Numbered from the stretch's first letter, positions 17,585 to 21,942 are shown. The stretch: 64,000 nt of DNA from Longimicrobiales bacterium (GCA_965249725.1 CBDFMQ010000002.1:1664001-1728000), one strand, 5' to 3'. Made by a program: numbers and translations. Notes: generated by a model from the sequence alone, not told the origin.

Positions 17585-17842
17585 CAGCTCAGCGGCCAGG
17601 AAGACCGTTTCGATTGGCGACTCGACGCTCAAGTCGGTGGCCGATGCTGCGGCGTACGTTCATCCGTTCACGTCTAAGAAGAGCCCGTGAGAGCCGATTC
17701 GTAACGGTGGATGAAATGGGGGGACGAGCAACGTCACTGAATACACAAGTAATTTATATGGGGATTATACGCTTGACTTGACTGGCGGCTCGTATTTTGC
17801 TATCTTCCTATAGGGTAAAACGTTACACCATAGGGGGTTAGC

Positions 17843-18784
17843 ATGGCTGGACCCAGAAAGCATTACCGGCGCGGGATCTCGATGATGGAGGTCTCCGATA
17901 TGTTCTCGACCGAGGCGAGCGCAACCCGCTGGTTCGAGTCCTGGCTCTGGCCGGACGGCGAGATCACCTGCATGAAGTGCGGGAGCACGGACGCCTACCG
18001 CGTCAAGAGCGGGAAGCCGATGCCTTACCGGTGCCGTGATTGCCGCCAGTACTTCAGCCTCAAGACCGGCACCGCGATGGAGCACAGCCCGCTTCCGCTC
18101 CATCTGTGGGGCTGGGCGATCTACCTGGAGATGACCAACCTCAAGGGCGTCTCCAGCATGAAGCTCGCCCGCGATCTCAATGTCCGGCAGGCTACCGCGT
18201 GGCATATGCTCCACCGGATTAGGGAAGCGTTCGCGGACGTCGCCTCCAACTTCGACGGCCCGGTCGAGGTCGACGAGACCTACATGGGCGGGCGTCAGCG
18301 GAACATGCCGAAGCACAAGCGGGCGCCGGGCCGTGGGTCGGTGGGCAAGACGGCGGTGGTCGGGATTAAGGATCGGCCTACAAGGCGCGTGGCCGCCCGC
18401 GTGGTCGAGAGCACAGACAGGGACACGCTCCAGGGTTTCGTGAAAGAACGCACGAAGCCTGGAGCCAAGGTTACACGGACGAGGCACGGGTCTACGATGG
18501 CCTAGAGAACCGCGAGAGCGTCAAGCACTCGGTCGGGGAGTATGTCCGGGGCATGGCCCACACGAACGGCGTCGAGTCCTTCTGGTCGATGCTCAAGCGC
18601 GCCCACCGTCTATCACAAGCTGAGCGCGAAGCACCTGCAGCGGTACGTCTCGGAGTTCGCGGGCCGTCACAACATCCGCGAAATGGACACGCTCGCCCAA
18701 CTCCAGCACGTTGCCCTGGGACTGGTCGGGCGGCGCCTCATGTACCGCGAGCTGGTGGCAGATGGTAGTGGGCAGGTGGGATAA
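17843..18784 (+). pseudogene. IS1595 transposase with two frameshifts
   Basis: CMKC..CRDC, EVDETY in one frame; YTDEARVY..HTNGVESFWS in a second (shift near 18470); YHKLSAKHLQRYVSEF in a third (shift near 18605). Confidence 0.9.
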
Positions 18785-18828
18785 GGCCGGCTCGGAGTCT
18801 CCCCGGGCCATACTCCATAAACCAAATG

Positions 18829-18907
18829 TTGATCTACATGTCCCCTCGGCTATATATTTTTTTATGAAAAGACCACTCCGTTAAAGGCGGTATCCGCCTT
18901 TAACGGA
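18829..18907 (+). promoter_or_regulatory. Sigma70-like promoter plus perfect 14-bp inverted repeat
   Basis: TTGATC then TATATA/TATATT 16-18 bp downstream; TCCGTTAAAGGCGG-TAT-CCGCCTTTAACGGA at 18877-18907. Confidence 0.6.
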
Positions 18908-18916
18908 TATTACCCC

Positions 18917-19597
18917 GTGGAGCGCATCGCCATGCCCACCCAAATCGCGTTGGATCCGCCAGACGAAAATCGGTACCGTACCGCCCTGCTCGAATCAGCA
19001 CCCGCGGGCTTCTTCAGTGCGCTGATTCGAGCGTTCCAGATCCAGTATCGGAATAGCCACGAACACGTGCGCGGCCTCTATCGAAAGCCGGAGGCCCACG
19101 ACGCATTGGGCACTGATCGACGGTCTCGCCTTGAAGAAGCAACCCGTGCTGTCGCCGAAAGATTCGGGATATCCTGTCCAGCCGTGATGAATCGGATGAA
19201 TAGTTCGTATCACCGCGAGTTGCGGATGGGTTCCGTGATTCTTACCCAGTCGTGCTCGCATGACGGAGATGTTCGCGGCGCGGTGTTCCGGAAAAAGCTG
19301 GCTGAACAATACAATATGTTCTCGATCACCGAGGAAATTGACATAGAATTCGAAGCCTTGATGGCCGAGGACGAGTGTGCGTATGGAATCATCATACACG
19401 GACCCCATTCCGACGACCCGGGTCAGCTCTTGTACATGAATGTGGTGTTTCCGCACGCGGAGCAGGATCGGTACATCACTCGGGTCAATCTCTTAAGCGA
19501 ATTCTCGGTAGTCGTTCCGAGCACAGTGCCGGACGAAGAAATAGCCAAGGAAGTGGCCATCAAGCCTCGTCGGATTCGTAAGGACTTGGAGGGATAG
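18917..19597 (+). CDS. Hypothetical protein, candidate toxin partner of HTH-ImmA (start may be 18932)
   Basis: 226-aa ORF ending 6 bp upstream of the HTH-M78 gene. Confidence 0.7.
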   Translation: MERIAMPTQIALDPPDENRYRTALLESAPAGFFSALIRAFQIQYRNSHEHVRGLYRKPEAHDALGTDRRSRLEEATRAVAERFGISCPAVMNRMNSSYHRELRMGSVILTQSCSHDGDVRGAVFRKKLAEQYNMFSITEEIDIEFEALMAEDECAYGIIIHGPHSDDPGQLLYMNVVFPHAEQDRYITRVNLLSEFSVVVPSTVPDEEIAKEVAIKPRRIRKDLEG

Positions 19598-19603
19598 AGA
19601 ATA

Positions 19604-20725
19604 GTGCGGTTTCGGCCCGAGAATCTAACGGAGGCACGAGAGGCACGGGATCTAACCATGACGGCTCTCGCTGAGCTGGTGAACCGCAAGCCAGCCAGCA
19701 TCTCTCACTACGAAAAAGGGCGCATCGAACCCCCTGCAGAAGTAGTCCATGCGCTATCGAAAGCACTGGATGTGCAGGTGGGATTTTTTTTCAAGCCCCC
19801 GCGCTGTATGCCCGAGGGTCCCACGTTCCACCGTTCGCTCTCAGCAGCAACCAAGCGAGCGCGACTTAGAGCTGAGCGCCGTATCGACTGGACGTTCGAC
19901 ATTCTGCGGTTTCTTGAAGGTTACGTTGACATCCCTTCGGCAAATCTGCCGCCTCTGACATTCGATCTCCTGGGAGAGCTGACCGATGACCAAATCGAGA
20001 TTGCGGCGCACGGCCTACGACGGTATTGGGGCCTAGGGGATGGCCCCATCCCCAATCTTGTGTGGCTTGTCGAGCAGCAGGGAGTTGTCGTGGTCCGGGA
20101 CTCTGTTGGGAACAACAAACTCGACGCCCACTCTCGATGGTGTGGCGAACGGCCGATTATTGTCCTGAATTCCGACAAGCGCTCATCAACTCGCTCGCGG
20201 TTCGACTGCGCGCATGAGCTTGGTCATGTTCTGTTCCATCGGAATGTCTCGGTGGCCCAGGCTCAACGTTCAGAAAACCGTAAGAGGATCGAGGCCCCCG
20301 CCGATCGCTTTGGTGGTGCATTCATGATGCCTGCCGAGACGTTTGCAGAGGAAGTCGGAAGGCCGACCCTAGAAGGGTTGCTGGCTCTCAAATCCAGGTG
20401 GCGGATGTCTGTCGCCGCGATGCTAGTGCGCTGCGCACAACTTGGTCTTGTTGGTGAGCGCAGGGCCGAACTAATGTGGCGCTCGCTGTCTCGGCGTGGA
20501 TGGAGGAGGCGCGAGCCGTTTGACGACTCCTTCCTGCCCGAGCAGCCGCGCATGTTTAATAGAGCCTTTGACGTTTTGGTTCAGAACAACTTGGCGAGCC
20601 GAGAGGCTGTCATCGACAGCACCCACCTCGCTGACGCAGACATCGAGAACCTTTCGGGCTTGGCTCGTGGGTTCCTTCGCAAGGAACCGACCCAGGTTTA
20701 CGAGATAGGCCCACGAGCCTCCTAA
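19604..20725 (+). CDS. XRE HTH + ImmA/IrrE (M78) metallopeptidase
   Basis: LTEAREARDLTMTALA..ISHYEKG HTH; RSRFDCAHELGH motif; APADRFGGAFMMP. Confidence 0.92.
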   Translation: MRFRPENLTEAREARDLTMTALAELVNRKPASISHYEKGRIEPPAEVVHALSKALDVQVGFFFKPPRCMPEGPTFHRSLSAATKRARLRAERRIDWTFDILRFLEGYVDIPSANLPPLTFDLLGELTDDQIEIAAHGLRRYWGLGDGPIPNLVWLVEQQGVVVVRDSVGNNKLDAHSRWCGERPIIVLNSDKRSSTRSRFDCAHELGHVLFHRNVSVAQAQRSENRKRIEAPADRFGGAFMMPAETFAEEVGRPTLEGLLALKSRWRMSVAAMLVRCAQLGLVGERRAELMWRSLSRRGWRRREPFDDSFLPEQPRMFNRAFDVLVQNNLASREAVIDSTHLADADIENLSGLARGFLRKEPTQVYEIGPRAS

Positions 20726-20759
20726 TCCACTGGCCCCAAAAGGGGAACGAGTATTGAAC

Positions 20760-20861: not shown

Positions 20862-20949
20862 CGACAGTGGACCGGCCCAAGACCTACACGACAACCAAAA
20901 ACTGACGGCTGTCATACAACTGTAGGGGTGAAGGGGGAGGAGAAAACGT

Positions 20950-21022
20950 GGCCCCGTAGCTCAATGGATAGAGCAACCGATTAGCGACCGGAAGGCTGCG
21001 GGTTCAAGTCCCGCCGGGGTTC
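20950..21022 (+). tRNA. tRNA-like element, Arg-like body with AGC in the anticodon position
   Basis: GGCCCCG-TA-GCTC-AATGGATA-GAGC-A-ACCGA-TTAGCGA-CCGGA-AGGCT-GCGGG-TTCAAGT-CCCGC-CGGGGTT-C; only 3 WC pairs in anticodon stem; no CCA. Confidence 0.75.
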
Positions 21023-21034
21023 ACGCTTCTCCCT

Positions 21035-21208
21035 CTAGCTGTCCTTCAAAGGATGGCTCTCGATCATATTTTCCAGCTTGTCGATGCGCAGATCCATCTG
21101 TTCGAGTCGCGTCTTTAGGTTAGTGAACCGCTCCGGTAGCTGGCCAACAGCAGCCTCCAATCGGTTCAACCTATCCTCGATACCGCCCGTATCGGCTCGT
21201 AAGCTCAC
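21035..21208 (-). CDS. Small coiled-coil protein (57 aa)
   Basis: GTG start with GGAGG RBS; EDRLNRLEAAVGQLPERFTNLKTRLEQMDLRIDKLE heptads; GTGA overlap with upstream ORF. Confidence 0.5.
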   Translation of the reverse strand: MSLRADTGGIEDRLNRLEAAVGQLPERFTNLKTRLEQMDLRIDKLENMIESHPLKDS

Positions 21209-21369
21209 CCATCCCTCCGGTCTGTTTCTCGCCGTTCCTCCAGCACCTTGCGGACCTTGGGGTCTTTCGGGCGGAGGAGTGCCCGTGCGACGTCGCTCAG
21301 TTTGGCACCCTTGTAGCGCGGGTTCACGGATACCGCGTCGGGCATGGGCTCCTGCTGTTCCTCGCTCAT
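21205..21369 (-). CDS. Small hypothetical protein (54 aa)
   Basis: MSEEQQEPMPDAVSVNPRYKGAKLSDVARALLRPKDPK...; coupled to 21035-21208. Confidence 0.45.
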   Translation of the reverse strand: MSEEQQEPMPDAVSVNPRYKGAKLSDVARALLRPKDPKVRKVLEERRETDRRDG

Positions 21370-21559
21370 GCGGTCAAGCTACGGGGATTGTCCCTAACGT
21401 CAAGTCGTTCGTCAGACTAGGCACGCTACCTGGTCGAGCATGACGTCGGTGCCCCTCTAGGTCGAAGGTGGCGGTGAAGCGCCGCCACGATAGGTTTGTA
21501 TGGGACGTCGCAAGGCGTGACGGGGGGCAGTCGCAAGAGAGATTGTCCTGGGGGTAAGC

Positions 21560-21784
21560 ATGAGCCTGGAACCTTGCCGCGAGTGCGGATCCCCCGTCGC
21601 GACCGGGGCCAAGACATGCCCAAAGTGCGGGGCCAAGAAGCCGCACGCCTCGCCCGCCGAGATAAAGCTGGACGATATCACCAAGTCGGGCATGGGCTGC
21701 GGATGCCTCCTCATGATACTGGGCGTCGCACTTCCCCTCGCTGCGATCGTCATTGTGGCGATTATCGGGACGATTTTCGGGTGA
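21560..21784 (+). CDS. Zinc-ribbon membrane protein
   Basis: CRECG..AKTCPKCG followed by a hydrophobic helix. Confidence 0.75.
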   Translation: MSLEPCRECGSPVATGAKTCPKCGAKKPHASPAEIKLDDITKSGMGCGCLLMILGVALPLAAIVIVAIIGTIFG

Positions 21785-21942
21785 CGCCTACTGTCAAGTC
21801 AAGCGTATAATCCCCATTTATATCGCGATTCGCGCCACTAGCGATCCGCTTAGCGTACCACAACACGCGGAGCTGTGCCCGAGCCACCACGCCCCGGCTG
21901 CTCATCCTCGGCGGCGCCGAGGCGGATCCCGGTGCTCGGGCT

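Follow-up and report, generated by a model that had tools for sequence, protein, structure and literature searches.

In a window of 64,000 nucleotides from a Longimicrobiales bacterium (GCA_965249725.1, CBDFMQ010000002.1:1664001-1728000; window positions are counted from the first letter of this stretch), we identified a 4,056-bp insertion sequence (IS) of the IS1595 family that carries a predicted RosmerTA toxin-antitoxin (TA) pair, rmrT and rmrA, and a tRNA-like gene, T1 (Table 1). Its bounds (17760-21815) are set by terminal inverted repeats (TIRs) that are identical at 23 of 23 bp (GGGGATTATACGCTTGACTTGAC) and by an 8-bp target site duplication (TSD), ATTTATAT, present on both sides. The host genome (4.16 Mb, 64% GC, 3 contigs) contains just these two matches to GGGGATTATACGCTTGACTTGAC at up to 4 mismatches, and a search of the same 4.16 Mb for a second copy of the element found none. 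The transposase is of the IS1595 DDE type with an N-terminal Zn ribbon, and its profile matches all exceed their cut-offs (PF12762, 51.6 bits vs. 27; PF12760, 32.7 vs. 25.4; NF033547, 99.4 vs. 75). Alignment with an intact 328-aa relative from genome G007 (68% nucleotide identity) reveals two lesions, near 18472 and near 18608. A short-read contig covering 18264-18557 spans the first lesion with zero differences, and another matches letter for letter over 18662-22431; the second lesion lies outside every listed short-read piece. Because the transposase is broken twice, the element is predicted to be unable to move by itself now. No empty site was found: the flank match in G002 is 82 bp long and lies in a different context, and runs X5 and X6, which cover both flanks without the cargo, had no bridging contig among the pieces listed and so were not counted as empty sites. 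An earlier note on this stretch had described the TIRs, the TSD and the doubly broken transposase, together with a tRNA cloverleaf, two coupled micro-open reading frames (micro-ORFs; uA and uB, which overlap by 4 nt) and a Zn-ribbon membrane protein. We recovered all of these, the last as a Zn-ribbon protein with a hydrophobic C-terminus.

Table 1. Features of the IS1595 element and related features discussed in the text (window positions unless a locus is named)
Feature	Position	Strand	Basis
T2, second tRNA-like gene, outside the element: A20, anticodon AGC, G3.U70, A73	7711-7784	-	
Second IS1595 element, TIR GGTAATTATATACTTGACGCAC, open 295-aa transposase frame and 215-aa passenger gene	13839-15637		
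Left TSD, 8 bp, ATTTATAT	17752-17759	.	sequence repeat
Left TIR, 23 bp, GGGGATTATACGCTTGACTTGAC; inward TTGACT, -35-like hexamer, within	17760-17782	+	
IS1595 transposase pseudogene, lesions near 18472 and 18608	17843-18784	+	Pfam/NCBIfam matches
Sigma70-like promoter candidate for rmrTA, 9/12	18829-18858	+	consensus match only
Perfect 14-bp palindrome, rmrT leader; candidate RmrA operator; also scored as minus-strand terminator	18877-18907	.	
rmrT, RosmerTA toxin homolog, 221 aa (226 from GTG 18917)	18932-19597	+	PADLOC, model
rmrA, HTH-ImmA/IrrE (M78) Zn-peptidase antitoxin, HELGH	19604-20725	+	Pfam, PADLOC
T1, tRNA-like gene: Arg-type body (A20), anticodon AGC, G1.U72, G2.U71, C73; flanks pair into long closing stem	20950-21022	+	ARAGORN, Rfam
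uB, 57-aa coiled-coil micro-ORF, coupled to uA	21035-21208	-	
uA, 54-aa micro-ORF, family common in IS1595 elements of host family; faces T1	21205-21369	-	
74-aa Zn-ribbon protein (E 2.4e-6), hydrophobic C-terminus	21560-21784	+	
Right TIR, 23 bp, GGGGATTATACGCTTGACTTGAC	21793-21815	-	
Right TSD, 8 bp, ATTTATAT	21816-21823	.	sequence repeat
G396 same-TIR IS1595, 560-aa DNA-methyltransferase-like cargo and uA, TSD AAACAAAA	L217:267-3287		

The TIR search across related genomes that the earlier note had proposed shows that the same TIR family bounds other contents. A 1,456-bp element, present in four copies in G007, holds only a transposase and uA; in G396, an element of 3.0 kb combines a transposase with a methyltransferase-like gene (assigned by reading the sequence) and uA. 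Both do without a tRNA-like gene, and the copies checked in both genomes are flanked by 8-bp TSDs. For this reason, the chassis is an ordinary passenger-carrying IS1595 with exchangeable cargo. In G001 (L024:1734-6691), an IS1595-like element contains a long internal inverted duplication with arms of about 1.7 kb, which may be a fold-back assembly artefact or a nested composite.

The protein pair is assigned to RosmerTA on profile matches and gene order. Three PADLOC RmrT profiles match rmrT (best E 6.5e-14), which is separated by 6 nt from rmrA; the latter matches the PADLOC RmrA profile (E 2.1e-117), PF06114 (E 5e-22) and HTH_3, with HELGH at residue 204. In all 12 plasmid RmrA relatives that were fetched (of 46 found), a gene of ~225 aa lies just upstream of rmrA, and an RmrT profile matches 6 of the 12. 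The coupling of the two genes proposed in the earlier note thus stands, as does its RosmerTA-like assignment, while the length it gave for the first gene (226 aa) probably does not: ATG 18932, which yields 221 aa, is the preferred start of the frame 18917-19597 because it is preceded by GGAG and because the database protein is also 221 aa long. The palindrome that the note had placed at the promoter lies behind the sigma70-like site and folds at -23.7 kcal/mol (z -7.2). Its position between promoter and start codon would fit an RmrA operator; against this, the palindrome is not kept upstream of the plasmid rmrT genes, where a comparable repeat (one 13-bp arm) occurs at 1 of 12 loci. RosmerTA pairs were also found in G117 and G176, i.e., in 3 of 301 genomes of the phylum with the host's own included. 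The G117 pair is the closest (RmrA 52% identical) and lies in a MobC/relaxase mobilisable element (L132:5214-8140), followed by a lone TIR of the same IS1595 next to an AlpA-like gene and adjoined by a host tRNA cluster. A search of the viral collection with RmrA returned no locus.

A HMMER search of 50%-identity representatives gave 298 relatives of RmrT at E<=0.001. A word-index protein search returned RmrT itself only; there was no PDB match by profile, no NCBIfam match and no plasmid match by tblastn, its Atlas neighbours are hypothetical proteins, and no Pfam family is common to 137 members. The AlphaFold model built from these 137 sequences (predicted local distance difference test, pLDDT, 83.5) is a soluble alpha/beta protein. 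Restriction endonucleases and Holliday-junction resolvases make up most of its best structural matches: NaeI (Z 8.1, root-mean-square deviation 3.7, 139 aligned residues), EcoRV (5.8), SfiI (5.7) and Hjc (5.4). Conserved residues in the 137 homologs are Y44, R68, R69, N92, T110, A122, R125, A129, H161, P179 and L192, and E73 and H99 are conserved in the 20 closest; a PD..(D/E)xK acidic motif was not found among the conserved residues. Two results limit the weight of this resemblance: the Z of 8.1 with NaeI is within the level that the tool calls common, and a Foldseek comparison of the model with the PDB and viral libraries yielded no match at E<=0.001. The model therefore weakly resembles the restriction-endonuclease PD-(D/E)XK fold, without the canonical acidic motif. 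Based on this fold and the conserved Arg, His and Asn residues, RmrT may bind or cut nucleic acid, rather than act on membranes.

T1 is a full-length cloverleaf with D, anticodon and T arms, 7/5 stems and a 5-nt variable loop, on which Rfam (RF00005, 55.2 bits, E 3.8e-9) and ARAGORN agree. Although its anticodon is that of tRNA-Ala(AGC), the elements of that tRNA are missing, with C3-G70 in place of G3.U70 and C73 in place of A73. The nearest host tRNA body is that of Arg, tied with Lys. C35 is an identity element of tRNA-Arg; T1 has G35. A20 is likewise an Arg identity element, with the rule A20 plus A/G73 given in PMC8629427; T1 has A20 but C73. Its anticodon stem contains two mismatches, and its flanks pair at -24.4 kcal/mol, against a background of -12.6 +/- 4.1, with a strongest value of -21.9, among the 52 other tRNA calls of the host. 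Given the loss of C35, the presence of C73, the two G.U pairs at the acceptor end, the two anticodon-stem mismatches and the strong flank pairing, T1 is probably not charged, and would be either a mimic or a decaying copy.

The earlier note had overlooked that this RNA has relatives, which are associated with IS1595/IS1-type elements and a micro-ORF, not with the toxin. The nearest, T2, lies 13 kb away in the same window and shares the variable loop, T arm and anticodon of T1; unlike T1, it does have the Ala elements, together with an A7.A66 mismatch. A TIR-like sequence, GGGGATAACGC, starts 13 nt from T2 (at 7798) and points outward, with no partner found, and T2 is flanked by a MobC-like remnant and an IS256-like fragment (labels assigned by reading the sequence). 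After exclusions, we counted 14 distinct members. Those of the host family are T1 and T2 (AGC), G337, G348, G463 and G469 (ACC), G256 (UCC), and two identical copies in G463 that have an 8-nt anticodon loop and were found through uA; beyond the host family, the members are G657, L052, L055, L056, L060 and L081. The anticodons are ACC, AGC, UCC, ACU and the 8-nt loop, with an Arg anticodon in 0 of 14. The A34 pattern occurs in 5 of 314 host-family genomes, the host's own included, and in 1 of 251 genomes of another class. Two unpublished genomes, G037 and G056, underlie none of the conclusions drawn here.

Every one of the 14 members carries A20; among 47 tRNAs in the host, this base marks the four Arg tRNAs and one probably mis-registered Leu call. 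The nine host-family loci were found by patterns and profiles blind to the D loop; the outside members were picked partly by resemblance. The rule A20 plus A/G73 is followed by 9 of the 14, and Arg is the nearest host tRNA body for 11. C36 is found at all nine host-family loci, including those from searches that left the anticodon free, and A34 in 12 of 14 members, although both counts are inflated by several searches that required A34 or C36. Among 11 aligned members, 93.9% of cells pair, and compensatory changes occur at 13 of 21 pairs, including all 5 of the anticodon stem; the anticodon loop stays YUA(C/G)CNA, which the search patterns partly imposed. Judged from this alignment, the family is kept as a cloverleaf.

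The metagenome and viral searches yielded 68 loci, which correspond to 40 distinct sequences: 16 resemble eukaryotic tRNA-derived repeats (by reading), 17 have U20 or G20 and in many cases belong to phage-like tRNA clusters, 5 carry A20, and the D arms of the other 2 are odd. Four of the 5 A20 sequences were kept. The counts exclude L094 as well as L058, which has a long D arm and, about 490 nt upstream, an IS1-like transposase. At L058 (6-830), an IS1-like transposase fragment and another tRNA-like sequence precede an ACC tRNA-like gene with a long extra D-arm hairpin. In the viral collection, two strict family patterns gave 0 matches and a looser one gave 9 loci, with A20 in none. Several candidates were rejected: L054 is probably a point variant of an ordinary tRNA-Arg(ACG); 4 of 9 GTDB pattern matches have other tRNA bodies (among the matches retained, 3 duplicate host-family loci, which were counted once); seven fetched plasmid look-alikes, of 56 matches listed or counted, are ordinary tRNAs or tRNA arrays; and the matches of a T-arm search are mostly ordinary tRNA-Arg(CCU) (30 of 53 fetched).

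A firm link to IS1595 or IS1 elements exists for 5 of the 14 members: T1, G348 (inside a 7.3-kb IS1595 bounded by TIRs and TSD), L060 (inside a 3.2-kb IS1-like element bounded likewise), L081 (some 50 nt downstream of an IS1595 transposase) and G469 (at a distance of 2.3 kb from an IS1595 transposase). Among the 68 loci from the metagenome and viral searches, transposases of these types occur at three only: L060, L081 and the unusual L058. The two G463 loci (L211:8447-9003 and L212:1322-1842) share an identical TIR-like end, the 8-nt-loop gene, which starts about 135 nt inside that end, and uA, and differ in their outer flanks; the same TIR-like end is also present in G348. The 8-nt-loop gene is possibly a tRNA of the +1 frameshift-suppressor type. 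At L052 (3490-5150, a Sphingomonas record), an ACU gene with A20 and the cargo gene that it faces are flanked by an IS1595-type micro-ORF on one side and a TIR-like end on the other (by reading), with no transposase. A convergent uA homolog follows the RNA gene at 7 of the 9 host-family loci; an Atlas search with uA gave no usable match. Several observations weigh against a maintained RNA tied to these elements. The DNA examined at G337, G256, G657, T2, L052, L055 and L056 lacks an IS1595/IS1 transposase. The link to uA is partly circular: the profile was derived from three of the loci and itself led to two others, and two (G469 and G463:C220) are independent of profile building. uA matches in 26 of 53 genomes of one genus, and most uA loci lack the RNA, which among 30 fetched is present only in G348 (two overlapping loci) and G463. 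Finally, covariation is expected in any tRNA-derived set and does not imply present selection.

The two modules occur independently in the loci sampled. No such RNA was found at any of 14 RosmerTA-type loci, where the tRNA calls are ordinary host tRNAs (G117 and G176) and two at a relaxed threshold, and RmrT was absent from all 82 tRNA-pattern loci. In G117, where the lone TIR lies 260 bp behind rmrA, neither the RNA nor a micro-ORF is found between them. These counts are tempered by a small RosmerTA sample, in which most identities are only 32-36%. Within these loci the gene pair never co-occurred with a tRNA-like RNA, and the suggestion of the earlier note that the RNA is a third component of RosmerTA is not supported. 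We consider it fairly probable that the modules are neighbours, not partners.

Taken together, these findings are best explained, with somewhat better than even confidence, by an immobile passenger-carrying IS1595 that holds two unpartnered modules, RosmerTA and a tRNA-Arg-derived passenger RNA. In the first module, RmrA would hold RmrT in check and would probably repress the operon at the 14-bp palindrome; upon phage infection RmrT would be released and the cell stopped, a conditional suicide that is proposed by membership in the family. The second would be a right-end passenger of the IS lineage, a tRNA-Arg-derived RNA whose anticodon was switched from Arg and which faces a small basic peptide gene. 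If T1 acts at all, it might do so as a stable uncharged tRNA mimic, e.g., a decoy for tRNA-binding or tRNA-cutting proteins; that it is such a functional mimic seems to us slightly more doubtful than not.

Among the alternatives, the one that fares best, although unlikely in our view, is that the IS lineage once captured a tRNA-Arg copy, which now decays neutrally and hitchhikes, the loss of the Arg anticodon having made it harmless. Its rarity (the A34 pattern matches 5 of 314 and 1 of 251 genomes), its absence from related elements that have the same TIR or uA, and the position of T1, with its stem mismatches, in an element with a broken transposase are all compatible with neutrality. Compensatory changes at every anticodon-stem pair and a constant, partly pattern-imposed loop are harder to reconcile with decay, as are the occurrence in unrelated hosts and with two transposase families (L060 and L081), the fact that an IS-borne member with an Arg anticodon never turned up, and the shared AGC of T1 and T2, which differ in their stems.

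It is less probable still that the family consists of dual-identity tRNAs, charged by the host arginyl-tRNA synthetase (ArgRS) via A20 (plus C35 in the ACC and UCC members) and inserting Arg where the codon specifies Gly or Ala, in the way that tRNA-ProX inserts Pro, with T1 as a weakened variant; equally improbable is its extension, in which the transposon uses these tRNAs as a conditional toxin or in a stress or anti-phage role, perhaps kept in check by the convergent peptide gene. The universal A20, the 9 members that follow the A20 rule, the Arg-like bodies and the non-random anticodons (C36 throughout the host family, and A34 as in tRNA-ProX) would be expected of such tRNAs, subject to the inflation by A34/C36-demanding searches and by the outside members picked for resemblance. 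Yet the acceptor ends vary widely (N73 is A, G, U or C, and several members have 1-72 mismatches), unlike those of a synthetase-selected tRNA, no dedicated synthetase gene was seen in the loci read, one member has an 8-nt anticodon loop, and T1 lacks both C35 and A/G73. Some toxins of the PD-(D/E)XK fold cut tRNA, and RmrT resembles a nuclease fold; the RNA follows rmrA on the same strand after a gap of 225 bp, in which no terminator-like site was found. Even so, a role of the RNA as a third part of RosmerTA (a decoy, substrate or RNA antitoxin for a tRNA-targeting RmrT) is very improbable in view of the independent occurrence of the two modules, most directly in G117, which combines the closest RosmerTA with the same TIR.

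The element sits in a mobile defence island. The second IS1595 element, for which no 8-bp TSD was seen, lies nearby, and a transposase 75% identical to its own is located at C3:1750641-1751525 of the host genome. A 474-aa gene without a Pfam, PADLOC or NCBIfam match (21943-23367, minus strand) lies directly to the right of the element, and 23810-29188 contains an MbeA-like relaxase gene and a 1249-aa Dsr1-like SIR2 defence gene (PADLOC E 1e-91). The host has a full set of ordinary tRNAs, including three Ala and four Arg tRNAs. Its tRNA-Pro(CGG) is present three times in tandem, twice with altered 3' ends, inside a large tRNA cluster (G000 C3:1903345-1903791), and its tRNA-Ser(UGA) twice in near-identical context (C3:3783 and C3:750846).

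The element presents IS1595 as a carrier of predicted anti-phage modules, with cargo that is swappable behind one TIR family, and a degenerate restriction-endonuclease-like fold offers a testable lead to the mode of action of the widespread soluble RmrT toxin family (298 representatives, no Pfam family). Annotation would call genes such as T1 Ala(AGC) or Gly(ACC) despite the Arg determinant A20 and their recurrence in transposons. A broader proposal, which we rate as rather unlikely, is that IS1595/IS1-type cargo transposons spread undescribed Arg-bodied tRNAs with Gly or Ala anticodons, which would act as ArgRS-charged mistranslators or as decoys in a tRNA-centred phage conflict, with the micro-peptide gene as partner. 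If true, this would be a transposon-borne RNA weapon, here stacked with a nuclease-fold RosmerTA. Should the members be charged, bacteria would have, besides tRNA-ProX, a second class of naturally mistranslating tRNAs and, to our knowledge, the first that is IS-borne.

IS1595-family insertion sequences with passenger genes (tIS) were reportedly described by Siguier and colleagues in 2009. The element shares with them a DDE transposase with a Zn ribbon, short TIRs starting with GG, an 8-bp TSD and cargo behind the transposase, and differs in carrying an anti-phage TA pair together with a tRNA-like gene as cargo and in having a broken transposase. Neither RosmerTA nor a tRNA-like gene as IS1595 cargo, nor Arg-bodied non-Arg tRNAs in IS1595/IS1 elements, were described in the full-text literature searched (most subscription papers and supplements lay outside its scope, and supplementary tRNA tables of allo-tRNA and ProX studies could hold such genes). 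With RosmerTA, defined in 10.1101/2022.05.11.491447 as a Zn-peptidase antitoxin plus a toxin of unknown function, the pair shares a toxin gene upstream of an HTH-ImmA Zn-peptidase antitoxin gene and PADLOC RmrT and RmrA profile matches to both. The RmrT of phage Kita depolarises membranes, according to PMC10440598, whereas the IS1595-borne RmrT described here models as a soluble, restriction-endonuclease-like alpha/beta protein.

As portrayed in PMC10404621 and PMC11415595, tRNA-ProX has A34 and dual identity and is toxic in E. coli. The family has in common with it one isotype's body with another's anticodon and A34, including AGC; by analogy, intact members could insert Arg at Gly codons. 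tRNA-ProX has a Pro body with C1:G72, A33 and G21 and a co-encoded ProRSx, whereas T1 has an Arg-type body with G1.U72, U33 and A21, the family is IS-linked, and the element lacks a co-encoded synthetase. A review (PMC7609411) covers allo-tRNA-like genes, some of which do not translate and have been suggested as parts of transposons or TA systems. There, too, identity and anticodon disagree; allo-tRNAs have 8/4 or 9/3 stems, long variable arms and Ser or Ala identity, in contrast to the 7/5 stems, 5-nt variable loop and A20 of the present family. The IS1595 chassis and the RosmerTA pair are thus of known kinds, and the tRNA-like passenger family is undescribed in the literature searched and constitutes the real lead.

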